Of a stretch of 64,000 nucleotides of DNA, positions 47,779 to 61,033 are shown one piece after another. Position 1 is the stretch's first letter. The number at the start of each line of letters is the position of its first letter. Under the pieces are notes generated by a model. It made no database searches and had not been told where the DNA came from. It saw only the letters and a program-made list of their open reading frames with translations. The stretch is from an uncultured Chloroflexia bacterium (lineage in GTDB: Bacteria > Chloroflexota > Limnocylindria > Limnocylindrales > CSP1-4). The position numbers and the translations under genes are program-made. The DNA is taken from the NCBI GenBank assembly GCA_963709605.1, contig CAVPWX010000020.1:401337-465336 (forward strand), read 5' to 3'.

Positions 47779-48147
47779 TCAGCAGCCGGCCGGCGCCGCG
47801 AGGTTCCCGTAATCGGTGCCCAGGGCGGCACTCACCTCCAGGGCGACCGCGGGCAGGTAGGTCTTCACCTCGTTGGTGGCCCGCAGGTGGGCCATGATCA
47901 CGTCGTTGGCCCGCACCGCCGCCTGGCACAGGCGGAGCCGGTCGACCTGCTCCTGGCTCGGGGCAAGGCCCGACTGCTGGACGCGCGCCACGCTGCCCTG
48001 CTGCTCGCGGAGATCGGCCATCAAGCCTTGCGCCGCTGGGTCGTTCTCGAAGGCCTCGGCGGCGGCGCGGGAGGCGGCGACGGCGGGTGCCTGCAGGAGG
48101 GCCCGGCCGAACGCGACGGCCGCATCCTGGAGCTCTGTGCTGAGCAT
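47779..48147 (-). CDS. YlbF/YmcA-like (UPF0342) helical protein ending in Cys
   Basis: 122 aa, helical, C-terminus ...LAAPAGC. RBS GGGGAG. Confidence 0.4.
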   Translation of the reverse strand: MLSTELQDAAVAFGRALLQAPAVAASRAAAEAFENDPAAQGLMADLREQQGSVARVQQSGLAPSQEQVDRLRLCQAAVRANDVIMAHLRATNEVKTYLPAVALEVSAALGTDYGNLAAPAGC

Positions 48148-48159
48148 CGTGTTCTCCCC

Positions 48160-48585
48160 TCAGCCGCAGCAGCCGCCGGCGGAGCGGCAGTTGGCGGCGA
48201 AGTCGATCCCGATCTGGGCGCTGACGACCGCGGCCGTCTCGCGACACACGCTCTGGAACGCGGCCGTGGCCGCGACGTACGCCGTGACGGACGGGACCGC
48301 GTACGTGGCCTGCTGGAGGCGCTCCAGCTCAACGCGCTGGGCATCGGGGAGGACCCCCATCATCAGCTCCACGCGGAGCTCGGCCTGGCGCAACTGGAAT
48401 GCCTCGATCGCCGATGTCGCGGCGGGATCCTTCGAGAGCGCCCGGTCGGCCGCCATGAGGGCGGTGAACTCGGGGCTGGCGCGGAGGGTCGCACCGAAGG
48501 CGCCGGCCGCCGAGAGCGCCTCGGCCTCCGCCGCCCGGGTGGCGGCCGCGCGATCGGCCGGGTCGAGTGTCGTTGGGTGGAGCAT
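48160..48585 (-). CDS. YlbF/YmcA-like (UPF0342) helical protein with a Cys-rich tail
   Basis: 141 aa, C-terminus ...ANCRSAGGCCG. RBS GGAGG. A paralog of the gene downstream. Confidence 0.4.
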   Translation of the reverse strand: MLHPTTLDPADRAAATRAAEAEALSAAGAFGATLRASPEFTALMAADRALSKDPAATSAIEAFQLRQAELRVELMMGVLPDAQRVELERLQQATYAVPSVTAYVAATAAFQSVCRETAAVVSAQIGIDFAANCRSAGGCCG

Positions 48586-48601
48586 CGGGTCAGGCCTCCG
48601 T

Positions 48602-50471
48602 TCAGGCGACGAGCGCGGTGGGGGCGAGGGTTCGCTCGAGGAGCTCGGTCAGCCGGTCGAGGCCCATGACCTCGCCGTCGAGCAGGGGCACCTCGAGGAC
48701 CGGGACCGAGAAGCGCTGCTCGATGTCGGCGAGGTATGACTGCTGCATGTTCCAGCGCGCCCGCGAGTACGGCGTCTGCAGGGCATCGTCGGGCAGGACC
48801 ATGTTGGCGACGACGAGTCCCAACGGGATCCCGAGCGATTCCAGCTCGGCGATGGCGCGCGTTGCCTCGACGATCGGCGTTGCCTCCGGGTACATCACGA
48901 AGGCGAACGTGCTCTCGGCCGGGTCGCGCATCATCTCGATGACCCGGCTGAACTGGGCCTTCGCGACGTCGTCGGCGGCGGCCGTGTCGACCGAGGCGAA
49001 GACCTTGATGTCGATCTGGCGGCTCCAGTCGATGGGGAGCTCGAGCAGCCGCAGGGTGTGGCCCGTCGGCGCCGTGTCGAAGACGGTGACGTCGAACGCG
49101 TCGCGGCTGGCCAGCTCGATGAACTGGTCGAACGCCGCCATCTCCTCGGTGCACGGCGAGTCGAGCTCCTCGCGCATCGCGGCGATCGAGGCCGGGCTCC
49201 GGCCGCGCGCGACCGCGTCGGCAATGATCCGATCGGTGTAGGCGATGGCCGCGGCCTTGGCGTCGACGCGGGCCGCCCAGAGGCCGTCCACGCCGTCCAC
49301 CGGCGCGGGCTCCGTCCCGACCGTCGCGCCGAGGACCTGCCCGATGTGGGCCGCGGGATCGGTCGTCACCAGGAGGGTGCGATGACCCTGGCGCGCCGAC
49401 CAGAGGGCGGTGGCGCAGGACGCGACCGTCTTGCCGACGCCGCCCTTGCCGGCAAAGAAGATCGTCCGAGGGCTCCCGTTCGGCAGGAGCGCCGCCGCCA
49501 CGGCCGCCTCGTCGTCGCGCGTCGCCCGCGTCGACCCGCGGTCCGCATGGCCGAAGGCCGGCCTCGTGGCGTGCTCGTCGGCGAGGAGCGGGACCAGGGC
49601 CCGCAGCCGCGCGATCCCGCGGACCTCGCCGTCGAGGAGCGGGACGCGCCGGGTCGGCATCGGCAGCTGGCGCGCGATCTCGGCGAGGTAGCGCTCCTGC
49701 ATCGCGATGCGGGCAGCGAAGAACGGGGTCGAGGCCTCCTCGGCGGGCAGGATCCCGTTGACGATGAGCTCCGTCGTGACGATCCCGAGGCGGGCCAGCT
49801 CGGCGCCGGCGCGCCGCGTCTCGGCGATCGCGGTCGCCTCTGGATGGAGCACGAACGCGAACCGTGTCAGCGACTGGTCGCGCAGCGCGGCAAGTGCCCG
49901 CTCGTACTTGACCTTCGCCTCGGCGATGGCCGCCGCGGGGCCGATGCACGTCTGGCCGGCGCCCGCGTCGGCCTGCGAGATGCTCTTCGACCACGCCTCG
50001 GGCAGCTCGAGCAGGCGCACCGTGTGGCCGGTCGGCGCCGTGTCGAAGATCACCAGGTCGAAGCCGGGCGCCGGTGGGCGGCGCTGCGGGGGCCGGCGCC
50101 GTCGGGTCGAGGAAGTCGGCGAACCGATCGAAGGCTGCGACCTCCGCGGTGCAGGGCCCGGCGAGCTGCTCCTCCATGACCCGCACGATCTCCGGCGGGA
50201 AGATCTCGCGGATCGGGGCGAGCGTCCGGTCGGTGTACTCGGCAGTCGCACGGTCGGGGTCGATCTCCATCGCCGACAGGCTCGGCACGCCCACGATCCG
50301 GGTGATCGCGTGGCCGATGGGCTGCTCGAACACGTCCGCGAGGTTGGATGCCGGGTCCGTCGTCACGATCAGGACGCGCGTGCCGGCATCGGCCTCCGCG
50401 ACCGCGGTCGTGCAGGCCATCGTCGTCTTGCCGACGCCGCCCTTGCCGGAGAAGAAGAGGAACTGGGTCAC
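48602..50471 (-). CDS. arsA: Arsenite-stimulated ATPase ArsA (apparent frameshift near 50100)
   Basis: Two halves, each with a P-loop (GKGGVGKTT, GKGGVGKTV) and the DTAPTGHT signature. Cys are present at the expected metalloid-site positions (GPCTAEVAAFDRF, GQTCIGP, SPCTEEMAAFDQF). Confidence 0.8.
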
Positions 50472-50498
50472 CGCGGATCCTTTCGGGAGCGCTGCGGC

Positions 50499-50834
50499 TC
50501 AGGCGTTGCTGGTGAGCTCGGCGCGGAGCTCGTCGAGGGTTGGGTAGGCGTCGGTCTTCACGATGCGTCCGCCCATCACGGTGATCGGCAGGACCTCGAG
50601 CTGGCGCTCCTTGATCAGCTGGTAGACCTCGCGGTTGCGCATGAAGGCCTGGGGGTCCGCGGTCATCATGTGGCGGACCACCGTCCTGCCCTCGGCCTCG
50701 AGCGTGAAGACCGCCTCGCTCAGGTCGACGAGCGTCGTATCGAGCACGGGACCGCAAAGCCCCGTCGGGCAGCAGAGCGGCGGGTCGAAGATCTCGACGT
50801 CGGGGGTCGCGGGGCCGGACAGCTGATCACTCAT
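50499..50834 (-). CDS. arsD: Arsenical resistance operon metallochaperone/repressor ArsD
   Basis: MSDQLSG...IFDPPLCCPTGLCGP N-terminal vicinal Cys motif and a thioredoxin-like fold. 111 aa. Confidence 0.75.
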   Translation of the reverse strand: MSDQLSGPATPDVEIFDPPLCCPTGLCGPVLDTTLVDLSEAVFTLEAEGRTVVRHMMTADPQAFMRNREVYQLIKERQLEVLPITVMGGRIVKTDAYPTLDELRAELTSNA

Positions 50835-51102
50835 GGGACGCTTGCTCCTGTGGGTGGCGGAGTGGAGCCGGGGCGGCCGGCTGGGTGAGCACGAGAGGAT
50901 CGACCGGTGAACGTGCCGCGGCCCGGGCGGCGTCAGCCGCGCTCCTGCCGCGGACCAGGTCACGGATGCGGTTGAACGCCAGCTCGAGGAGGGGCGTCTC
51001 GAAGAAGGGCCCGCAGGCACCTCCCGGGCAGCACGTCGGCTCAGCGAGTAGGTCGGTATCGGTCGCTCGGGGGTTGTCGGTCGCGTCATGCATGTAGAGC
51101 AT
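50827..51102 (-). CDS. ArsD-like N-terminal paralog (truncated or degraded)
   Basis: Contains TCCPGGACGP and LELAFNRIRDL, but the C-terminal half does not resemble ArsD. It overlaps the arsD start. Confidence 0.45.
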   Translation of the reverse strand: MLYMHDATDNPRATDTDLLAEPTCCPGGACGPFFETPLLELAFNRIRDLVRGRSAADAARAAARSPVDPLVLTQPAAPAPLRHPQEQASHE

Positions 51103-51403
51103 CCGACTGCAGAGCCTCGGCGACGGCGCGCTCGATGGCGGAGACGTTGAGCTTCCCGCCGCTGAAGCGGCGGATCCCGTCGATCATCACGACCGGCGGA
51201 ACGGCCTCGCCGGCCGCGATCGCCGCCTCGACGTCCGGGTGTCGGGCCATCTCGGGACCGAAGAGCTCGGCGTACTCGAAGGCGACGGCCGGCCCGAACC
51301 GCTCGGCGAGGCGCCGCTCGACGAACGCCGCGGCCGCCCGCCACGTCTTCCCGGGGTCGCAGGCTGCCATGGGCACCCCTACCACGACGACCGTGCTGGT
51401 CAT
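51086..51403 (-). CDS. Small thioredoxin-fold-like protein (possibly YuzD/DUF1462-like), hypothetical
   Basis: MTSTVVVVGVPMAACDPGKTW...; weak pattern similarity to DUF1462 disulfide oxidoreductases. The ATG overlaps the arsR stop. Confidence 0.35.
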   Translation of the reverse strand: MTSTVVVVGVPMAACDPGKTWRAAAAFVERRLAERFGPAVAFEYAELFGPEMARHPDVEAAIAAGEAVPPVVMIDGIRRFSGGKLNVSAIERAVAEALQSDALHA

Positions 51404-51825
51404 CGCGAGACCTCCGCGGCCAGTGGCAGGCGCGACAGTGGCGACGGCTCGAGACCCGTCGTACTGCGGGAGCCGCAGTCGGTGCACAGGCAGGCCGTGG
51501 CCGCGTCGGTGGTGGGAGTGAGGAGATCGACGACCGCGGCCCGCAGCGCCTCGACCCGCTCGACGTCGAGGGAGTAGAAGACCCAGCGGCCGCTCCGCCG
51601 CTCGCGGAGCAGGCCAACGCCCCGCAGCGTCCGAAGGTGGTGCGAGACGAGTGCCGTGCTCATGCCGAGCGCGTCGCCGACGTCGCAGACGCAGTGCTCT
51701 CCGTGGGCGAGGAGGGCCACGATGCGGGCACGGTTCGGCTCCGCGACCGCCTGCAGGACGGCGAGCTGATCGTGCGCCAGAGGGAGTGCGATCCCGTGCG
51801 CGGGGTGGGCTTTCATGGCTCCCAT
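51400..51825 (-). CDS. arsR: ArsR/SmtB family As(III)-responsive repressor
   Basis: HTH plus the GEHCVCDV metal site, like ELCVCDL in R773 ArsR. A C-terminal extension carries CLCTDC. Confidence 0.75.
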   Translation of the reverse strand: MGAMKAHPAHGIALPLAHDQLAVLQAVAEPNRARIVALLAHGEHCVCDVGDALGMSTALVSHHLRTLRGVGLLRERRSGRWVFYSLDVERVEALRAAVVDLLTPTTDAATACLCTDCGSRSTTGLEPSPLSRLPLAAEVSR

Positions 51826-51850
51826 TCTAACAACTGTTAGACCAACGTGT
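51826..51850. promoter_or_regulatory. ArsR-type operator candidate, ATTCTAAC-aact-GTTAGACCAAC (TCTAAC-N4-GTTAGA palindrome), abutting the arsR start
   Basis: Read directly. AT-rich. Near-identical to the site at 52907-52930. Confidence 0.5.
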
Positions 51851-51861
51851 GTTTGACGGAA

Positions 51862-52083
51862 TCATCCGCAGCATCCGGGCCCGCGATCCGGACCGCAGGC
51901 GAGCGAGGATGGGCGCCTGGCCTGGTGGACGATCGTCGCGAACGTCAGCCGCTGCCGGGCTTCCCGGCTCCCACATGCGGGGCATGTCGGTACCAGTCCG
52001 CCTTCGCGCTCGGCGATCGAGGCGCGAACCTCGAAGGCCTCGCCACAGCGTCGGCATTCGTAGTCGTACAGGGGCACGGTCAC
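51862..52083 (-). CDS. FmdB-family zinc-ribbon protein with an extra C-terminal Cys tail
   Basis: PLYDYECRRCGEAFEV...CPACGS, then ...ACGPDRGPGCCG. Confidence 0.5.
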   Translation of the reverse strand: MTVPLYDYECRRCGEAFEVRASIAEREGGLVPTCPACGSREARQRLTFATIVHQARRPSSLACGPDRGPGCCG

Positions 52084-52153
52084 ACTCCTCCCCGCCGCCG
52101 GACGCATGGCGCGTCATCCTCGCGGCGGATTCCGCTCCGCCCGTCGCGTGCTC

Positions 52154-52843
52154 TCACGTGCTGACCACCATGAACGCCTCCGCCAGGCGCCCGTTCGGGA
52201 GCCCGCCCTCGGCGGCCAGGTCGACCAGGCGGGCAGTGACGCTGCGCTCCAGGTCGGTCATCTGGTCGGTCTGGCTGTGGTGCTCGCGCAGTGCCGCAAG
52301 CCTCCGATCGATGGTGCCGGTGACGTCCACCCAGTGGTTGGGCGTCGGCGCGCCGAAAAGCCAGGCCTCGGGCACCTCCCACTCGACGAGGCCCTCGTGC
52401 CGGGCGAGGGTCGGGTGCGCCAGGGGGTTGCGGGCGTCGGGGTAGATCGCGGCGATCGACGCCTCACCCGCGGCGATGTGGTCGGGGTGAAGCTCGCAGA
52501 TGCGACGCCAGTTGCGCTCGGGCGAGTGAATGAGCATGCGCTGCGGTCGCACCTGGCGGATGACCCGGGTGATGTCGCGGCGCAGCTCCATGGTGGCGAC
52601 CAGCTCTCCGTCACGATAGCCGAGGAAGCGCACGTCGCGGACGCCGAGGACGGCGGCGGCCGCCACCTGCTCCCGCCGCCGCCGGGCAGCCACGTCGGCA
52701 CGGGTGGCGGCACGATCGACGCCGCCGGCGTCGCCGTCGGTGATGACGCAGTAGGTGACCGCGATGCCGGCGTCCGTCAGCAACGCCACCGTCCCGCCGG
52801 CGCTGAAGTCGACGTCGTCGGGGTGCGCGGCGACGACGAGCAC
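52154..52843 (-). CDS. PIG-L/LmbE-family N-acetylglucosaminyl deacetylase (MshB/Mca-like)
   Basis: VLVVAAHPDDVDF and PIG-L fold motifs. GTG start at 52843. Confidence 0.7.
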   Translation of the reverse strand: MLVVAAHPDDVDFSAGGTVALLTDAGIAVTYCVITDGDAGGVDRAATRADVAARRRREQVAAAAVLGVRDVRFLGYRDGELVATMELRRDITRVIRQVRPQRMLIHSPERNWRRICELHPDHIAAGEASIAAIYPDARNPLAHPTLARHEGLVEWEVPEAWLFGAPTPNHWVDVTGTIDRRLAALREHHSQTDQMTDLERSVTARLVDLAAEGGLPNGRLAEAFMVVST

Positions 52844-52906
52844 GCGCTCGATCGAGCCCGGATTTCAGCATGGCAGGGCGGTCCCACGCGACGAGTGGTG
52901 GTCCAT

Positions 52907-52930
52907 GACGTTTATTCTAACCAAGGTTAG
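52907..52930. promoter_or_regulatory. Second ArsR-type operator candidate, ATTCTAAC-caag-GTTAGTACAAC, upstream of the PIG-L gene
   Basis: Read directly. 19 of 23 positions match the site at 51826-51850. Confidence 0.45.
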
Positions 52931-52961
52931 TACAACATGAGTTTGAGAACTTCGGCCCCTT

Positions 52962-52981
52962 GCCCGGGGCCGAACGGCCCG
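52962..52981. terminator. GC-rich hairpin CGGCCCC-ttgcc-CGGGGCCG immediately after the truncated acr3 ORF
   Basis: Read directly. There is no U-tract, which is common for actinobacterial terminators. Confidence 0.3.
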
Positions 52982-52992
52982 TACCCCGCTCC

Positions 52993-53262
52993 TCACCGTC
53001 GCCAGGCCGCGCCCGATCGCACGGCACGCAGCGTGCTCGCCGACACGACCGTCCAGGCGACGGCCTCGAAGCGGACGTTGACCATCATCGGGTAGATGAT
53101 CATGAAGACCGCGGCCGTCGTGACGCCGCCGAGGAGCCCGGCCTGGCTCGTCGCGAACCCGGCAAGCGCGTTCCCGGCCAGCAGGCCGACCACGATGGCC
53201 AGGCTCACGTAGGCCAGCATCCAGCGGTTGAGATGCTCCTGGAGGGAGCGGATCCGGGTCAT
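52993..53262 (-). pseudogene. N-terminal fragment (about 85 aa) of an ACR3-family arsenite efflux permease, terminated by a stop. The remaining roughly 270 codons are absent.
   Basis: MTRIRSLQEHLNRWMLAYVSLAIVVGLL...MIIYPMMVNVRFEAV resembles the ACR3 N-terminus (...MYPPLAKVRYEEL). No continuation in any frame; the PIG-L gene follows. Confidence 0.55.
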
Positions 53263-53650
53263 CGCGCTGCGGCCGGCGTCGCCGTCACCGTGGCCCCGCT
53301 GATCCGTTCGCGGAACACATCGTGCCCGGGCTGGCTGGGGCGGGTCGGACATGGTGCGCCTTCTTCGTTGTCGTCCGTGTGGGGGATGGGCCGGCTCGTG
53401 CTCGGTCCATTTATCTCACCGTGAACTGTGTTATTATGCCCCAAGAGATCCCTCTGCCGTCGGTCACCTCGTTGGGTGCTGATCGGCCTACCGGAACAGG
53501 ACATGCGGGACGGACCCGGCGAGCACACCGCTGAGCTGAGCGGCTCGCCGGCACCGTCGATCGCTGGAGCGGCCGGGATCTCGTTCCAACGCCCAGGCCC
53601 AGCCTCCCTACCCGAGCCTCGCCGCCTCAGCGTTTCAGACAGGTGGCACG

Positions 53651-54689
53651 TCAGCCCGTCGATGCAGCCCGGTGCCCGGCGTGCCGCTCCGCCACGATCT
53701 CGGCCAGGATGCCGAGCGCGATGTCGGCCGGCGTGTGGCCCCCCAGGTCGAGCCCGACCGGGGCGTGGATCCGGGCCAGCTGGGCGTCGTCGAGCCCCGC
53801 CTCGCGCAGGCGCGCCAGCCGCTGGCCATGGGTCCGCCGGCTCCCGAGCGCGCCGACGTAGAAGGCGCCCCGCCGCAGGGCGGTGATGATCGCCGGGTCG
53901 TCGATCTTCGGGTCATGGGCCACGGCCACGACGTGGGCGGCCGCGTCGATGCCGGCCCGGTCGGCGAGCTCGTCGGCCCAGCCGAGCAGCAGCTGGTCGG
54001 CGTCGGGGAACCGCTCACGGGTCAGGAACGCGGCCCGGGGGTCCACCACGACCGTCTGCAGACCGATCGCGTGGGCCAGGCGGACCAGGTAGACGGCGAT
54101 CTCGCCGGCCCCCGCGATGATGAGGCGGGCGGCGGCGAGCATCTCGAGGAAGACGTCGCGCCCGCCGGCCCGGACGATGCGGGAGGCGCCGGCACGGAGG
54201 GCGTCCCGGGCAAGGTCCGCGAGCTCGGCGTCGGCCGCCACGTCGCCAAGAGAGCCGGAGCGGATCCCCGCCGGCGTCGAGGACGACACGCTCCACGTCG
54301 GCGGCCTGCCGACCAGCCGGGAGCGGGGTGGCGATCAGCAGCGCCCGGCCCTCCCCTGCCGCGTCGAGGACCACGTCGGGCAGGACCGGCTCGACGAGGA
54401 CGTCGATCTCGCCGCCGCAGGTGAGGCCCACCTCGGCGGCCCGCTCGTCGGTGACCCCGTAGCGCACCAGCTCGCGATAGCCGCCGCGCCGGGCAGCCTG
54501 GACGGCCTCCGCCGCGGCGCCCTCGACGCAGCCCGCGGAGACGCTCCCGGCAAGCCGGCCGTCGTCGGCGGCAAGGAGGGTGCTGCCGATCTCGAAGGGG
54601 GCCGACCCGACGGACCGGACGAGCGTCGCCCGGCCGAACCCCACCCCCTCGGCTCGCCAGCGAGCGCCGGTCGCCAGGACGTCCCTCAC
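53651..54689 (-). CDS. XdhC/CoxI-family accessory protein (apparent frameshift near 54270)
   Basis: XdhC N-terminal domain (ORF 54015..54689) and Rossmann-like C-terminal domain (ORF 53651..54289, LIIAGAGEIAVYLVRLA). Confidence 0.7.
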
Positions 54690-55179: not shown

Positions 55180-56710
55180 TCACGTGAGCGACGGAAACAG
55201 CGTCCGGTCGGTGTGCGGCAGGAAGAGCGCCGCCGTGTACTCGTCGAAGTAGCGCGGCTCGACGGTCAGCTCGAGGCAGGTGATCGACGAGGCGATCTCT
55301 CGCGCGCGCCGCCACGCCGCGCGCGAGAGAAGCGCTGCATGCGCGCCCGCCAACGAGCTGTTGCCGATGAACTGGATCCGCTCGCGCGGGATGTCGGGCA
55401 GGAGCCCGATCCGTACTGCCTGCTCGATCTCCAGCGATTGGCCGAAGTTGCCGGCGATGAAGACTCGCTCCACGTCAGCAAACGCCAGGCCCGCGTTCGC
55501 AAGCAAGATTTCGCGAACCCGCGTAGAGGGCGGCCTTGTCGCGAATGAGGTTCGCAATGTCGCCCTGCCGCAGCGCGATGTCGCGCCCGACGGCTGTCTC
55601 GTTCGCCGAAGCCAGAACGACCTCGGCGTATCCTTCGCGGCGACGCACGCTGGGCGCGGCGAGGTCGACCTTGCCGGCGCGGTCGATAGCGCCGACCTGG
55701 AGGAACGCGCCGAGCGCCTCGATGAGCCCAGAACCACAGATCCCCCGAGGCGGCTGGCCGCCAACGGTGGCATAGGCGAGACGACCATCGTCGGCCCAGA
55801 CGCGGTCGATCGCGCCGGGTAGCGCTGCCATCCCCCACTCGAGACCGCACCCCTCGAACGCGGAGCCAGCAGAACCTGAGCATGCCATCAGGAATTCGCG
55901 GTTGCCCAGTACCGTCTCGCCATTGGTGCCGATGTCGATCAGGATGGAAAGCGGTTCCTCGTCCGCGATCCGTGTCGAGAGCAGGCCGCCGGTTACGTCG
56001 CCGCCCACGTAGCCGCTCGCCGCCGGGAGGAGATAGAGCGGCGCGCCTTCGCCGACGTTCAATCCCACTTGGGCGACGTCGAGAACCGGAAACGCGGTGG
56101 CCGCCGGCACGTATGGCTCCCGGCGGATACTGCCGGGGTCGAGGCCAAGGAGCAGGTGCATCATGACGGTGTTGCCCGCCATGGCCACCGCCGCGATGTC
56201 GTCCTGGCCGACCCGCGCCTCGGCGCCCAGCGCCGCCACGAGCTCGTTCAGTGAGTCGAGAGCCGCCTGGCGCAGCGCTTCGAGCCCACCCGGTTCCTCG
56301 GCGTGCATCATCCGCGACGTGACGTCCATGCCGAAGATGCGCTGCCCGTTGTAGACGAGGTGAGATCCGAGGACCGCGCCCGATTCGATGTCGACCAGCT
56401 CTGCGACGACCATCGACGTGCCGAGGTCAACCGCGAGTCCCAGCGTGCGCGACGCTTCGCCGAGCGGTACGACGCGGACGACGCGCCACGTGTCGCCCAC
56501 ATCAGCCAGCGTCGCGTCGACCTGCCAGTCCCCGCGCCGCAGCGCTGGACCCAGGTCGCGCAGCACGGCCAGGGTCGGTTCAAGCGAACGGTCATCGAGC
56601 CGCGGCCGCAGCGTGCGCGCAACTCGTGCCCAGTCGCTCGTCGTATCGCTGAGCGAGGGTGGGTCGACCGTGAGAGACACCCGTTGCAGCAGAGCATCGT
56701 CCGCGCGCAT
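55180..56710 (-). CDS. ASKHA-fold DUF4445 protein (RACo-like putative corrinoid reductive activase without an N-terminal ferredoxin domain; apparent frameshift)
   Basis: LAVDLGTSMVVAEL, IDIGTNGETVLG and GICGSGLIEALG motifs match the RACo C-terminal ATPase. The C-terminus is in ORF 55180..55788. Confidence 0.55.
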
Positions 56711-56937
56711 CTGCATCTCCTTGGATCTCCGCGACACCCGCTCCGTCGTCATCGGGAGCCTGCAGTTGGCGTTCGCCATGGCGTCGTCGACCGCGCCGAC
56801 GCCCAATGCTGTCCGAGGCTTCTTGCCGGGCGCGCGGGACTGCGGCATCCTGAACCGTGGCGGGCGCTTCGCCGTTCGTGATCCTAACCCGTCATGGTGC
56901 GGCCGACCTGCGAGGACGACCAGAGGGGAGAGCGCAC

Positions 56938-57186: not shown

Positions 57187-57921
57187 GTGGCTGAGATCAG
57201 GAAGGTCGATCCGGCGCCGGACTACCCGCCCGAGGAGGGCTGCTACCTCCGGGGCAACGACTACTCGCCCGTGGCGGTGCTAGTCATCCTGAAATGGATC
57301 CGGGAGGAGACTCCGCCCGAGATCGAGGCGCTCGTCCGGGTGGGCGTCGAGAGCGGGGCGGCCCTCTCGGGCACCCTCCAGACCGAGAACGTCGGGCTGG
57401 AGAAGGTCATCTGCAACGTGGTGGCCAACCCGAACATCCGCTACCTCGTCGTCTGCGGCCCCGAGTCGCCGGGGCACCACGTCGGCGAGACGATCCTCGC
57501 CCTGATGGCGAACGGCGTCGACCAGCGGAAGCGGATCGTGGGCACCAGCGCCCAGACGCCCTACCTGTTCAACATCCCGGTCGCGTCGATCGAGCGGTTC
57601 CGTCGCCAGGTCACGGTGATCGACCTGATCCACGAAGGGCGGCCGGAGGTGATCCGCGAGGCCGTCGCGGCCTGCTACCAGGAAGAGCCGACGCCCTTCC
57701 GCGATCGCCTCCTGCACGATCCCGGCGCCTGGCCGGATCCGCCCATCAGCGGCCGGATCACCTGGCGCGTCACCGACCCGACGAGGGAACCCAAGAGCGA
57801 GGAGGAGCGGGCCGGGCAGGAACGGATCCGGGCGCTGATCGACCGCGCCAGGAAGGCCGCCGAAGCGAGGCACGGCGGCCCCCCGGACCCGTCGGGGGGC
57901 GAAGCCGGCTCGCCGGGCTAG
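57187..57921 (+). CDS. MtrA-like protein (homolog of tetrahydromethanopterin S-methyltransferase subunit A, cobamide-binding fold), soluble
   Basis: TENVGLEKVICNVVANPNIRYLVVCGPESPGHHVGET is closely similar to the MtrA core (TENLGIEK...NPNIRFLVVCG.E..GH). Confidence 0.55.
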   Translation: MAEIRKVDPAPDYPPEEGCYLRGNDYSPVAVLVILKWIREETPPEIEALVRVGVESGAALSGTLQTENVGLEKVICNVVANPNIRYLVVCGPESPGHHVGETILALMANGVDQRKRIVGTSAQTPYLFNIPVASIERFRRQVTVIDLIHEGRPEVIREAVAACYQEEPTPFRDRLLHDPGAWPDPPISGRITWRVTDPTREPKSEEERAGQERIRALIDRARKAAEARHGGPPDPSGGEAGSPG

Positions 57922-58001: not shown

Positions 58002-58256
58002 CTACTCGTCCAACCAGACGGCGATGTTGCCGGCCGAGGGGATCCGTCCCGCGCTCACCACCTTGCCGTCGATCACGAGGCCCGGGGTCGACAGCACGCC
58101 ATAGGCGGCGATCTGGGCGTGGTCGGTCACCTTGACGATCTCGGCTTCGACGCCGGCCATCATGACCGCCTCGCGGGCGTTCGCCTCGAGCTGCTTGCAG
58201 TTGTCGCAGCCGGGACCAAGAACCTCGATTCTCGTCAAGTGAAGGCCTCCATCCAT
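58002..58256 (-). CDS. Small thioredoxin-fold redox-active disulfide protein (TIGR00412-like)
   Basis: 84 aa with a GPGCDNCK CxxC motif. Confidence 0.7.
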   Translation of the reverse strand: MDGGLHLTRIEVLGPGCDNCKQLEANAREAVMMAGVEAEIVKVTDHAQIAAYGVLSTPGLVIDGKVVSAGRIPSAGNIAVWLDE

Positions 58257-58318
58257 GGCGCGCCGGGCGCGCCGTTCTCAGCGGTGGGACATGGCCGCCG
58301 GGCGGGCGGCGCGCATGG

Positions 58319-58648
58319 TCACGCGAGGATCTCCCCGAGCGCCTCGAGCGCCCGCCGGCAGGCGGCGGCGTCGCGCTCGTAGTAGACCCGCCGGGTATCG
58401 GCGCCGACGCGGCTGGCGCGCACCAGCCCGGCGTCGCGGAGGCGGGCGAGGTGGTTGCTCACGTTGTTCTGCTGGGCGCCGAGGGCGGCGGCCATCTCGC
58501 AGACGCAGACGGGCCCGTCGCGGAGCATCCGCACGATGCTGGCCCGGTTCGGGTCGGCAAGGAGCGCGGCGGCCGCCGTGGCATCGCTCACGTCGGGCGC
58601 CGGGAGGTTCATTCGCAGGTCCTGGAGGACCGGCAGCTCAATCGGCAT
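58319..58648 (-). CDS. arsR: ArsR/SmtB family metalloid-responsive repressor
   Basis: HTH with the GPVCVCEM metal-binding site. Confidence 0.8.
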   Translation of the reverse strand: MPIELPVLQDLRMNLPAPDVSDATAAAALLADPNRASIVRMLRDGPVCVCEMAAALGAQQNNVSNHLARLRDAGLVRASRVGADTRRVYYERDAAACRRALEALGEILA

Positions 58649-58693
58649 CGGAGGTCTCCTCTGGCGTGCCGTTCATGGACGTGGCGATCGTTG

Positions 58694-59449
58694 TCATGTC
58701 AGGAGGATCCAGGCGCGCTGGATCGCGAGCGCCACGAGGGCGACGGCGAAGATCCGGGACAGGGTCTGGCTCTTCACCCAGCCGGCCGTGAAGCGAGCGC
58801 CGAGCCAGGCCCCGATGACCGCGGCGATCGAGGTGACGATCACCGTCGGCCAGTCGAAGGTCGCGGTCGGGAGGTGGGTGGCGAAAGCCGAGAAGGACGG
58901 CAGCGTCACCGCGACGGAGTTCGTGGCAGCGGCCAGGCGGGCGGAATAGCCGACCAGGGTGAGCGTCGGCATGAGCAGGAACCCGGGGCCCACGCCGAGA
59001 AACCCGGCGAAGACGGAGATCGGCACGGCCGCGCCGGCGGCCTTCGCCCTGTTGCGGTCGGTGATCTCGGCGACCACCTCGGTCGAGGCGCCCTTCGGCA
59101 GCGCCATCCGGACGGCGAGGAAGAGCAGCACACCGACGTAGAGCCACCAGACGATGTCGACGGTGGCGAACTGGAGGAGCCAGACGCCGAGCGGCGCCCC
59201 GATCGTGGTGATCGTCACCAGGATGAGCGCACCGCGCTTGTCGACCATGCCCTTGCGCCAGAAGGCGATCGCGGCGCTGATCGCGGTCAACCCGTTGAGC
59301 AGCAGCGCCCAGGGCTGGATCTCGTTGATGAGGTCGTAGCCGAACAGCCCCAGGACGGGGATGGCGATGAAGGCGACGCCGAGGCCGAGCATCCCCGACA
59401 GGAACGACAGGCCGAACAGCAGCGGCGTCAGGAGCAGCAGCATCTCCAC
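58694..59449 (-). CDS. TauE/SafE (DUF81) family anion exporter
   Basis: 251 aa, 7-8 TM segments, GMLGLGVAFIAIP and GFLGVGPGFLLMP motifs. Confidence 0.8.
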   Translation of the reverse strand: MEMLLLLTPLLFGLSFLSGMLGLGVAFIAIPVLGLFGYDLINEIQPWALLLNGLTAISAAIAFWRKGMVDKRGALILVTITTIGAPLGVWLLQFATVDIVWWLYVGVLLFLAVRMALPKGASTEVVAEITDRNRAKAAGAAVPISVFAGFLGVGPGFLLMPTLTLVGYSARLAAATNSVAVTLPSFSAFATHLPTATFDWPTVIVTSIAAVIGAWLGARFTAGWVKSQTLSRIFAVALVALAIQRAWILLT

Positions 59450-59453
59450 GGGA

Positions 59454-59906
59454 TCAGGCCACGATCTCGAACGTCGGCTCGACGACGATCTCGGACTTCA
59501 CGGAGTTGGCGACGAGGCTGAATCTCTGCGCCGACTTCAACGCCCGGCGGGCGCGGGCCTCGACGACGGCCGGCTGCTCCGCCCCGGCGCGGATGACGAT
59601 CCGCGGCCACAGCCGCAGGTAGGTGAAGGTCTCGGTCCGGTCGAGCTCGATGAGCTTGGTTCCCTCGGCCCTGCAGTCGTACGACTGCAGGTCGAGCCGG
59701 AACCGCTCGGTCGCCCAGATGAACATCATCATCACGCAGGTGTTCGCCGCGGCGACGAAGGCATCCTCGGGCGTCAGCACCCCGGGATGTCCCTGGGCAT
59801 CGGGTGGAGCCGAGAAGGGCATCTCCGGGCCGTTGCCCAAGGTGATCTGCCCCCAGTGCTCCCCCGTCCACGTCACCGTCGTGTGGTACGTCGCCCTGCG
59901 GCTCAC
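59454..59906 (-). CDS. OsmC/Ohr-family peroxiredoxin-like protein
   Basis: OsmC fold pattern with two Cys (...AANTCVMMMF... and ...DCRAEG...). The GTG overlaps the upstream stop (GTGA). Confidence 0.7.
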   Translation of the reverse strand: MSRRATYHTTVTWTGEHWGQITLGNGPEMPFSAPPDAQGHPGVLTPEDAFVAAANTCVMMMFIWATERFRLDLQSYDCRAEGTKLIELDRTETFTYLRLWPRIVIRAGAEQPAVVEARARRALKSAQRFSLVANSVKSEIVVEPTFEIVA

Positions 59907-60615
59907 GGCCGAGACCCCGTCGGGTGGCAGAAGGCGGCGTACTCGCGCGCGAGCGCGGCCGCGTACTCCTCGTCGGTCCCGGCCGGCACGTCGTTGTAGA
60001 TCTTCACGGTCTCGAGCAGCTCCTTCGCAACCTCCGCGCCGGGCGCCTTCCCCGCGCCGCGGAACTGCTCGAAGATCAGCGGCAGGGCCGCGAGGGGAAC
60101 CGGCCGTGCCGTCCACGTCCACGGTCTGCACCGGGATGGCAGACGCGCACGCACAGCCGGCCTGCGGCGCGGCCTCCACGAACGACCCGCGGCGCCGATC
60201 CCATCGCTCCCCGAGAAGCTCGTCGACGAGGCCGGCGACCCGGTCGGCGGTCACCTCGGCCGCCTGCCGGCCGGCGGCGTCCAGGCGGCGGGCGCCCCGG
60301 GGCCGGTCCAGGCCGTGCTCGGCCAGCAGATCGGTCACGACGACGCTCGCGGCTGGTTTGCCAGAGAACTGCTCGGTGGCCCGCGCCGCGCACCGCTTTT
60401 CGCAGCCGTCGACCGCGATCGTCGGGTAGAAACGGGCGAAGGCCCGGTCGCCTTCCCCGCCGGCCAGGAAGAGCGGCAGGCAGATGGTGACCGTGTCGTC
60501 GGGGCGGAGCTGCTCCAGCACCCTGCAGTGCGGCCAGGCGGGTCACCGTCCCCTCGGCCAGCTCCTCGCCGGAGCATGCGACGATCCCGACCTTGCGCTG
60601 CGGCAGCTCAGGCAT
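59903..60615 (-). CDS. DGC-domain (PF08859-like, Cys-rich putative Zn-binding) protein (apparent frameshifts)
   Basis: MPELPQRKVGIVACSGEE..., then ...ICLPLFLAGGEGD...YPTIAVDGCEKRCAAR..., in shifted frames. Confidence 0.45.
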
Positions 60616-61013
60616 GGTCGGATGCCTCCTCGCGGGAGACCAGGTCGTCGACGACGGTGGCGATCTCCTCGGCCACCGCATGGGCGAGCTGCTGTCCGCC
60701 CTCGTTCAGCTCGGCGATGCCCCGCGGCTTCAGCTCCCGGTTCCGCCGGTACACGTCGAGCACCGCGATGCCCTGGGCGACGTGCCCTCCGCTCTCCTCC
60801 ACCATCTTGGCGGCGCAGGCGAGCTTGCAGCCGTCGATCGTCACCGCCGGATGCGCCCTGACCGCGGCGCGGGCGTCCTCGTCACCCAGGACCAGGAGCG
60901 AGAGGGCCACGAGCCCCGTGGCCCCCGGCCGCAGAGTCCTCGGTGACCTCGTAGGCGGCCTCGCGGCTGACCGTGCCGTACGTCTTGCCGATGCCGCTGC
61001 AGGGCACGACCAT
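60608..61013 (-). CDS. DGC-domain protein (paralog; apparent frameshift near 60935)
   Basis: MVVPCSGIGKTYGTVSREAAYEV..., then ...AVTIDGCKLACAAKMVEESGG. Confidence 0.5.
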
Positions 61014-61033
61014 GACCTTGCGATCTTCGGGGC

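Follow-up and report, generated by a model that had tools for sequence, protein, structure and literature searches.

An autoregulated ArsR repressor, acting through palindromic operators placed at more than one promoter, belongs to the textbook logic of bacterial gene control. We consider here two look-alike sites in a 64-kb stretch of DNA from an uncultured Chloroflexia bacterium (contig CAVPWX010000020.1; the whole stretch is termed the window, and its numbering is used throughout), the one in front of an arsR gene that opens an operon containing arsD and arsA, the other in front of a gene for a deacetylase of the PIG-L family, followed by a zinc-ribbon gene. When they are read together with their counterparts in related organisms, it appears likely that these sites are promoter-operator cassettes repressed by ArsR, unit 1 commanding the ars operon and unit 2 the PIG-L and zinc-ribbon genes. 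In the ArsR/SmtB family at large, operators are inverted repeats that overlap promoter elements and bind several dimers, with repression relieved by metal (PMC5658604).

The ArsR proteins of Escherichia coli (R773 and chromosomal) are likewise small winged-helix repressors, encoded by the first gene of the operon they repress; the helix-3 CVC pair is found in both cases (ELCVCD there, EHCVCD here), and R773 carries arsD and arsA as cargo, as does the present locus. The operator differs in sequence and in layout, as two adjacent 6-4-6 inverted repeats here enclose the -10 box. The protein also belongs to another subfamily (51.2 against a cutoff of 97 with the E. coli-type model PRK10141), it has an additional invariant CxCxxC at its C-terminus, its mRNA is probably leaderless and its cassette is duplicated within the locus. 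The 12-2-12 operators of SmtB, CzrA and CmtR, in so far as they are presented in the passages of PMC5658604 that cite Osman and Cavet 2010, are also imperfect repeats located in the promoter or over the start and occupied by more than one dimer, and CmtR is cited there with multiple operator sites; here, in contrast, a 6-4-6 repeat with core AAC-N4-GTT occurs twice, with centres 15 bp apart, the CmtR equivalog score remains far from its cutoff (39 against 150) and the effector is likely to be a metalloid. TtSmtB, from Thermus thermophilus HB27, is a single repressor that acts at its own promoter and at one or more further promoters carrying a similar palindrome, as we propose here, and its transcripts include one whose 5' end lies 3 nt ahead of the start codon (PMC5658604); its targets, however, are dispersed on the chromosome and bound with different affinities, while we are dealing with tandem, near-identical cassettes that stem from local duplication. 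In Acidithiobacillus ferrooxidans, ArsR binds arsenite through its C-terminal Cys95, Cys96 and Cys102 (PMC6555750). The clade studied here also has invariant C-terminal cysteines, but it keeps in addition the helix-3 CVC pair, combining features of two site types. Finally, the ars1 operon of Bacillus sp. CDB3 (arsRYCDAT-orf7-orf8) is, as here, a long operon opened by arsR and endowed with arsD, arsA and accessory genes (PMC4562236). In our locus, however, the accessory set comprises an FmdB zinc ribbon, PIG-L, orf105, a YlbF-like pair and a short ArsD-like open reading frame (ORF); the operon itself lacks a pump gene, and in the window the neighbouring ACR3 gene has been deleted. As far as the searchable literature shows, the operator sequence itself is undescribed.

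An initial annotation of the window had quoted two 23-nt sites, and both exist as exact matches, ATTCTAACAACTGTTAGACCAAC at 51824-51846 and ATTCTAACCAAGGTTAGTACAAC at 52914-52936, the coordinates that accompanied them (51826-51850 and 52907-52930) being shifted. Its description of the sites as AT-rich islands in GC-rich DNA is borne out: by hand count the units have 38% and 32% GC, against 73.6% for the window. The palindrome that it saw them share, TCTAAC-N4-GTTAG, is also present, but the likeness is longer than quoted. On the minus strand, which carries all the genes of this region, both sites run from TCAAAC to TAGAAT and on to an ATG 7 nt further, and the element is a whole promoter with a double inverted repeat rather than a single palindrome. 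The source genome was scanned over the 64 kb of the window. CTAAC-N4-GTTAG, with at most one mismatch, occurs at two sites only (0.05 expected), and the 23-nt pattern, with at most three mismatches, likewise at two (0.00 expected). A weight matrix built from orthologous sites, with a listing threshold of 12 bits, recognizes the two units with the scores given below and finds nothing else at or above 12 bits in the rest of the window, except for a 13.2-bit overlap of unit 1 with itself. The units comprise two inverted repeats (IR1 and IR2) and a -10 box:

51823..51856, minus strand: unit 1, promoter-operator cassette of arsR, 34 nt, TCAAACACACGTTGGTCTAACAGTTGTTAGAATG, 57.2 bits
51841-51856, minus strand: IR1 of unit 1, TCAAAC-ACAC-GTTGGT
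51826-51841, minus strand: IR2 of unit 1, TCTAAC-AGTT-GTTAGA, a perfect 7-2-7 when read as TCTAACA-GT-TGTTAGA
51824-51829, minus strand: -10 box of unit 1, TAGAAT, preceded by TGT (extended -10)
52913..52946, minus strand: unit 2, second copy of the cassette, 34 nt, TCAAACTCATGTTGTACTAACCTTGGTTAGAATA, 54.7 bits, identical in the sibling contig L155
52931-52946, minus strand: IR1 of unit 2
52916-52931, minus strand: IR2 of unit 2
52914-52919, minus strand: -10 box of unit 2, TAGAAT, preceded by GGT

The two adjacent 6-4-6 repeats of each unit share the half-site TC(A/T)AAC, IR1 taking the form TCAAAC-N4-GTTkGw and IR2 the form TCTAAC-N4-GTTAGA, and in both units TAGAAT sits within the right arm of IR2. 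We find here inverted-repeat DNA that overlaps core promoter elements at a presumed start of transcription, as operators of the ArsR/SmtB type do. Two other ways of placing the promoter were discarded: a promoter of extracytoplasmic function (ECF) type (AAC ... CGT) would, in the information profile, have its -10 in the unconserved N4 spacer and too short a spacing, and TTGACT or TTGTAC within the unit, taken as a -35, would be merely 9-10 nt from TAGAAT. The start codon of arsR is the ATG at 51816, 7 nt past the TAGAAT of unit 1, yielding an ArsR of 138 residues, while the ATG at 51825, which begins an ORF of 141 residues, is the one inside TAGAATG. It had been proposed that site 1 overlaps the ribosome-binding site of arsR; what it overlaps is the -10 box and ATG 51825. 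No Shine-Dalgarno sequence fits into the 7-nt gap, which is too short for one, and the arsR mRNA is therefore probably leaderless.

The cassette is inherited together with its regulator. ArsR has 341 homologues at E<=1e-10; among the best 120 of these, the window's own protein aside, identity ranges from 58 to 77%, the length is typically 138 or 141 residues, and the matches listed come nearly all from metagenomes, one of them under the NCBI name Candidatus Limnocylindrales. We sampled 80 metagenome loci encoding ArsR relatives, 77 of which include the sequence upstream of arsR, and the unit is present there, with at least 35 bits, in 77 of 77. It is thus located at the regulator's own promoter, as autoregulation would have it, and co-inherited with it, as also witnessed by 19 of the 20 genomic occurrences presented below. 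The unit has the consensus TCAAACGCACGTTGTACTAACGTCGGTTAGAATG and resolves, across 56 distinct sites, into CAAAC-N4-GTTTG followed by CTAAC-N4-GTTAG; information peaks at CAAAC, GTT, CTAAC and GTTAGAAT. The N4 spacers vary, and so do the flanks. Of 103 distinct units, 88 have TAGAAT as their -10 hexamer; the start codon that follows is ATG in 65 and GTG in 22, and the gap between the two measures 6 nt in 40 and 7 nt in 45 (85 of the 103). With a gap of 6 nt, arsR is not in frame with the ATG of TAGAATG, and the true start of the gene must therefore be the conserved M(D/E)AH codon; this in turn accounts for the split between 138 and 141 residues in database annotations.

The same exclusive link emerges from a scan of 185,579 species, each represented by one genome. 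The strict pattern CAAAYNNNNRTTNNNHHAAYNNNNSTTAGAAT, which recovers 44 of 57 known sites and for which some 40 chance matches are expected, gave 74 matches. Twenty of these are in loci of metagenome-assembled genomes (MAGs) with a GC fraction of at least 0.64, one per genome, labelled mostly Chloroflexi, Chloroflexota, Chloroflexia or Limnocylindrales, with one Acidobacteriota; nineteen stand directly upstream of an arsR orthologue, and the twentieth (L145, 1431-1464, minus strand) adjoins the ars operon at its ylbF end and precedes an MtrA-like gene, with the 7-nt spacing. Contigs as large as 2.69 Mb, 581 kb and 546 kb have exactly one match each. The other 54 matches, a number to be set against the 40 or so expected by chance, belong to genomes of 23-63% GC without a homologue of any gene of the operon, as chance matches would; their weight-matrix scores, inflated by the GC-rich background model, were not used. 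The fear that the motif might occur widely at unrelated promoters, which a genome-wide search had been meant to address, is therefore not substantiated, as the high-GC matches are at the ars locus only. The MAG labelled Acidobacteriota (L090, CAVZMJ010000011.1) has the unit and the operon at 71% GC, with fragmented matches for several genes, and may reflect mis-binning, transfer or a frameshift-rich assembly.

The operon that follows unit 1 is organized as follows:

51400..51816, minus strand: arsR, ArsR/SmtB metalloregulator of 138 residues (Pfam HTH_5 50.2 bits, cutoff 22; NCBIfam NF033788 89.6, cutoff 55)
51086..51403, minus strand: orf105, 105 residues, second gene, matching no family; its start and the stop of arsR overlap (ATGA)
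50827..51102, minus strand: short ArsD-like ORF, 91 residues, third gene, with a CCxxxxC motif and no Pfam match
50499..50834, minus strand: arsD, arsenite metallochaperone (Pfam ArsD 91.4 bits; NF033727 102.9, cutoff 90)
48602..50471, minus strand: arsA, two-domain ATPase (Pfam ArsA_ATPase 335 bits), its frame broken by one additional C at about 50068
48160-48585 and 47779-48147, minus strand: two genes of the Com_YlbF family, placed by synteny at the end of the conserved operon (Pfam 46.1 and 51.7 bits)

This order, arsR-orf105-short ArsD-like ORF-arsD-arsA-ylbF-ylbF (47779-51816, minus strand), is conserved across the clade: orf105 comes after arsR in 70 of the 80 loci, arsD is found in 62 of the 80, and many loci give weak ArsD-like tblastn matches at the position of the short ORF. 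The product of arsR has the winged helix-turn-helix of the ArsR type, with cysteines in helix 3 (HGEHCVCD) and in a C-terminal cluster, CLCxDCG. Among 31 members of the clade, HGEHCVCD as well as C111 and C114 are invariant and C109 is conserved in at least 90%, as metal or metalloid ligands would be; the C-terminal CxCxxCG is invariant or nearly so, the M(D/E)AH start is conserved, and the recognition helix, SxALVSHHLR, does not vary at all. A search for co-variation between operator variants and this helix had nothing to find, the helix being invariant. The protein is below the curated cutoffs of all the characterised equivalogs considered, PRK10141, Rv2640c, CmtR, BigR, TsoR and SdpR, with for example 51.2 against 97, 51.6 against 155 and 39 against 150. 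A second gene of the ArsR family is present in the window at 58319-58672, within a cluster (58002-61033, minus strand) that also encodes Thioredoxin_3, a TauE/SafE exporter and DGC/OsmC-domain proteins, and in which the weight matrix finds nothing above its listing threshold.

The presence of a second unit is not peculiar to the window. Extra copies, in the same orientation, lie 350-900 bp upstream of arsR in at least eight other loci (L034, L038, L039, L045, L046, L055, L062 and L084), with three units in all in L039, while the extra copy of L002 is degenerate, having lost the left arm of IR1. Every extra copy precedes the same gene, directly upstream of arsR, for an FmdB zinc ribbon (PLYDYxCxxCG...CGPxxxxGCCG), and the extra-copy promoters are followed by RTGGAYGCSCAC, where the opening codons of arsR (M-D-A-H) survive as a decaying copy. 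Because this decaying remnant of the arsR start has been kept, the unit of duplication can be recognized from the sequence as promoter, operator and start codon together, and it is by duplication in this form that the cassette spreads. Unit 2 of the window has a matching feature, an ORF of 13 codons. In L039 (1533-1860) the third unit drives a chimera in which the N-terminus of ArsR (MDAHLSHPIAPPLA) is joined to the C-terminal 80 residues or so of a SLAC1-family protein, which speaks for recombination between the repeated units as a process that reshuffles the locus.

Around unit 2, the window is organized as follows:

52993..53262, minus strand: deletion remnant of 89 residues, the upstream boundary of unit 2, made of ACR3 residues ~1-67 and the last ~22 residues of a SLAC1/TDT-family protein
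52952..52973, minus strand: hairpin CGGCCCCGGGCAAGGGGCCG, rich in GC and separated by 5 nt from unit 2, on its upstream side (52945-53010 folds with -37.6 kcal/mol, z = -2.5)
52865..52906, minus strand: 13-codon ORF, MDHHSSRGTALPC and a stop, starting 7 nt past the -10 box of unit 2 and aligning with the 5' end of arsR
52154..52871, minus strand: PIG-L/LmbE-family deacetylase (Pfam PIG-L 104.6 bits, cutoff 28.2)
51862..52077, minus strand: FmdB-type zinc-ribbon protein, 71 residues (Pfam Zn_ribbon_8 51.3 bits; TIGR02605 54.3, cutoff 31.3)

We can understand the 13-codon ORF, from its alignment with arsR starts and with the zinc-ribbon-type units of other loci, as a decayed 5' coding remnant of arsR that was copied along with the promoter. 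Its stop overlaps the ATG of the PIG-L gene (ATGCTGA), and this ATG has no Shine-Dalgarno sequence of its own, two features which suggest that PIG-L is translationally coupled to the leaderless remnant. In the sibling contig L155, which is 97.5% identical, the gene starts with ATG CTG AAT and encodes 238 residues (MLNPGSIERVLVV...), while in the window the frame is shifted at codon 3 by an extra A in the run 52863-52865, and GTG 52843 offers an alternative start in frame (229 residues). Window and L155 differ by three single-base homopolymer indels in all (52863-52865, ~50068 and ~53345), two of which break frames, at PIG-L codon 3 and in arsA; because L155 and a further locus of the window's own organism, L001, both lack the extra C of arsA, these differences are probably consensus errors and not true pseudogenes.

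The PIG-L family is very large (LmbE-type deacetylases of roughly 239 residues, more than 7,700 clusters at E<=1e-20), and the protein is far below the equivalog cutoffs of BshB2 (93 against 195), BshB1 (87.9 against 182.5), Mca (41.6 against 277) and MshB (35.5 against 224), so that it is recognized by the general PIG-L domain only. Its gene adjoins arsR in a single one of the 80 metagenome loci, L001, and L155 and L157, which are contigs of the organism that L001 comes from, share the arrangement. The nearest relatives, 74-77% identical (L163-L165), lie just past the 3' end of the arsR operon, in convergent orientation and after an aldehyde dehydrogenase gene, with an ATG led by a Shine-Dalgarno sequence; the ATG-CxG-AAY start recurs in relatives. 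That these relatives might also carry the cassette was ruled out, as no unit is found at their genes. Because they are located beyond the operon, without a unit, the sequences point to PIG-L as a habitual neighbour of the arsR operon that was recently rearranged, in the window's organism, between the zinc-ribbon copy of the promoter and the zinc-ribbon gene. The zinc-ribbon protein itself belongs to the FmdB family (TIGR02605), with its N-terminal CxxC-N17-21-CxxC ribbon starting at the initiator methionine; C8, C11 and C35 are invariant in the alignment, C32 is conserved in at least 90%, and the gene has its own Shine-Dalgarno sequence, GGAGGAG. Three further invariant cysteines are found at its C-terminus, C61, C69 and C70 (...CGPxxxPGCC), the right number for what could be a tri-thiolate As(III) site.

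The initial annotation saw the two sites as delimiting two transcription units. The promoters point in the same direction, the stop of the zinc-ribbon gene is 5 nt from unit 1, there is no terminator or hairpin in this gap, and a scan of 50400-53700 for T-tract terminators found none. We therefore have to consider, instead of separate units, tandem promoters of one co-regulated block, in which read-through is likely. Upstream of unit 2, the hairpin is a possible terminator or insulator against the remnant that precedes it. This remnant gives a weak N-terminal match to TIGR00832 acr3, and because L055 has at the equivalent position both an intact ACR3 gene (350 residues) and an intact SLAC1 gene (374 residues, ending in STLRAVASGAAWRR), comparison of the two loci indicates that a deletion of some 2.1 kb, shared by L155, took the arsenite pump from the window's locus. 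Further upstream lies an XdhC-family gene (53651-54289, minus strand), which has this place before the ars locus in L045, L055, L084, L093, L111, L119 and L135 as well, a case of conserved synteny.

More distant ars clusters tell a parallel story. In L159, L160 and L162 the order is arsR-arsD-arsA-PIG-L-LMWPc-ylbF-ylbF-zinc ribbon, followed by an orf105 homologue of about 100 residues, and in L161 it is RACo-ylbF-ylbF-flavoprotein-zinc ribbon-orf105 homologue; the distant members of the zinc-ribbon subfamily are 47-59% identical, and orf105 matches the gene of about 100 residues placed after the zinc-ribbon gene of L161 with 36% identity (8e-12). In gene content, arsD and arsA clearly have recurrent companions in orf105, the YlbF pair, the zinc ribbon and a deacetylase of PIG-L type. 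The window's PIG-L is nevertheless no orthologue of that of the distant clusters (37% identity over 125 residues). These clusters use another ArsR subtype, of 131 residues, whose promoters carry AATTCAAT-GTAT-GTTGAACT adjoining TATAAT, again in 6-4-6 geometry; tandem 6-4-6 palindromes, ATAGTTCAAT-N4-RTTGAACTAT, are found near TATAAT in L162 (~200-370) and L159 (~300-350), with three copies upstream of arsA in L162. They may be taken as a second, candidate operator family, and their like geometry at another ArsR subtype lends independent support to the reading of our units as operators of the ArsR family. The window has an MtrA-like, corrinoid-binding homologue of its own (57189-57921, plus strand), with a Shine-Dalgarno-led GTG and no unit, adjoining a RACo-like corrinoid activator (55475-56848, minus strand). 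The unit of L145 drives an MtrA-like gene, and in L161 RACo shares a cluster with the ylbF pair and the zinc-ribbon gene; the arsenic gene set may have a tie to some function that depends on corrinoids. A search of the literature on FmdB zinc ribbons in ars operons and on ArsR-controlled bacillithiol deacetylases returned nothing relevant, the FmdB papers being concerned with formylmethanofuran dehydrogenase.

The control that we propose would proceed as follows. TAGAAT, within IR2, would act as a -10 box of sigma-70 type without a recognizable -35, and transcripts would start at or next to the ATG located 7 nt downstream, making them leaderless. Dimers of ArsR on IR1 and IR2 would occlude the -10 region and keep RNA polymerase out. 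Once arsenite, or another thiophilic metalloid related to it, had bound to the CVC of helix 3 and the C-terminal CxCxxC, the repressor would be released and both promoters would fire, unit 1 driving arsR-orf105-arsD'-arsD-arsA-ylbF-ylbF and unit 2 driving PIG-L and the zinc-ribbon gene. With a free operator, transcripts from unit 2 would probably run on into unit 1 and arsR. The hairpin may shield the whole block from the remnant that lies before unit 2. Binding and repression by ArsR are here inferred from the established behaviour of the ArsR/SmtB family (PMC5658604). The proposal made at the outset, that one ArsR co-regulates the ars operon and the PIG-L/zinc-ribbon pair, is thus strongly supported for its cis-acting part, as the unit precedes this ArsR in 77 of 77 loci, is found at the ars locus only in 20 MAGs and has a second copy before the zinc-ribbon gene in at least eight other loci. 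It must be narrowed for PIG-L, whose placement under unit 2 is specific to this organism, and the binding and the response to arsenite are predicted.

Several points weigh against this scheme. The right half of IR1 is imperfect in both units of the window (GTTGGT, GTTGTA), and the repeats, 6-4-6 with centres 15 bp apart, are not the textbook 12-2-12: when the IR2 consensus is read in that manner, by hand comparison, 8 of 12 positions match, the conserved symmetry being 6-4-6, twice. A simple sigma-70 promoter scan of 50400-53700 listed no promoter because there is no -35 match, and the promoter call therefore relies on how TAGAAT is conserved and on the constancy of its spacing rather than on any -35/-10 match. 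The literature on this ArsR clade yielded no report of binding, transcription start or expression, and the effector, presumably As(III), is read from the cysteine motifs and the arsD/arsA cargo. Finally, other genes of the ArsR family are found nearby, both in the window (58319-58672) and in many loci. It is this last point which gives some substance to the idea that the units, while real, are read by another regulator, either the second ArsR-family protein, about 40% identical, or a global factor: such second genes are near the operon in L008, L010, L016, L035, L059 and others, as well as in L165. We regard this as unlikely, for the second ArsR is variable in presence and place, while the unit is directly upstream of the 138-residue ArsR in every locus of the sample where it could be seen and in all but one of the twenty genomes, autoregulation at the regulator's own promoter is the norm of the family (PMC5658604), and the invariant recognition helix accords with conserved half-sites.

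The history of the locus could also be invoked to argue that unit 1 works while unit 2 is a functionless fossil of duplication and recombination, PIG-L and the zinc ribbon being expressed otherwise. The locus has been rearranged, as the ACR3/SLAC1 deletion, the displacement of PIG-L and the chimera of L039 testify, the piece of arsR coding sequence left behind unit 2 is decayed, and the window's PIG-L is frameshifted at codon 3. Yet unit 2 keeps every conserved position, with a score close to that of unit 1, while the adjoining coding remnant has diverged; it is identical in L155, where the homopolymer difference behind the frameshift is absent, and equivalent second copies are kept before the zinc-ribbon gene in at least eight other loci. 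PIG-L moreover lacks a Shine-Dalgarno sequence of its own and has an ATG overlapping the stop of the remnant, which suggests reliance on the promoter and start of unit 2; we find a fossil rather improbable. It is still more difficult to see the block as a strong constitutive promoter whose upstream repeats would be UP-like contacts for polymerase, with no repressor. The best-conserved segment does include the -10 box and, without a recognizable -35, upstream contacts could matter, but the conserved upstream positions form two dyad-symmetric repeats of the same half-site, which is typical of sites for dimeric repressors and not of UP elements, and the block is found at one locus per genome, beside a repressor gene, whereas a feature common to promoters in general should be seen at many genes; we give this view very little credit. 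That the repeats might belong to a small mobile element or to a structured RNA motif, rather than to DNA that controls transcription, is scarcely conceivable: several copies per locus in some genomes and the local rearrangements would fit, but the copies are confined to the ars locus, in one orientation and 6-7 nt before a start codon, contigs of up to 2.69 Mb have no dispersed ones, an Rfam search of 50000-54000 gave no match at E<=1, and the block is upstream of the predicted start of transcription. Repression by the 138-residue ArsR at both units remains our preferred reading.

Taken as gene regulation, all this is well supported but fairly ordinary, and its more interesting parts are the way in which the cassette was duplicated, a start that is likely to be leaderless, and a cargo that is conserved but uncharacterised. 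One may go further, in a speculative vein and with more doubt than conviction, and see the 34-nt unit with its leaderless start as a portable plug-in cassette, copied repeatedly in this Chloroflexota lineage, which would have wired the zinc ribbon, PIG-L, the MtrA-like corrinoid protein and the SLAC1 remnant into a single arsenic-responsive regulon. This regulon, with ArsD and ArsA in an operon devoid of a pump, orf105, a YlbF-like pair, a zinc ribbon with a tri-cysteine tail and a deacetylase reminiscent of thiol pathways, would amount to an uncharacterised pathway of arsenic handling. What is left of the arsR codons would act as an upstream ORF, itself leaderless, to which the recruited gene is translationally coupled. 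At a more immediate level, we now have a concrete operator and promoter, amenable to testing, for an ArsR clade that is uncharacterised yet common among the Chloroflexota of sediments and soils; they could be used for predicting regulons in MAGs and as a compact arsenic-sensor part. The locus shows how a regulon can grow by copying a cassette of promoter, operator and start codon, and the unstudied genes that travel with arsD and arsA, those of the FmdB zinc ribbon, orf105, the YlbF-like pair and PIG-L, may share in the handling of arsenic.

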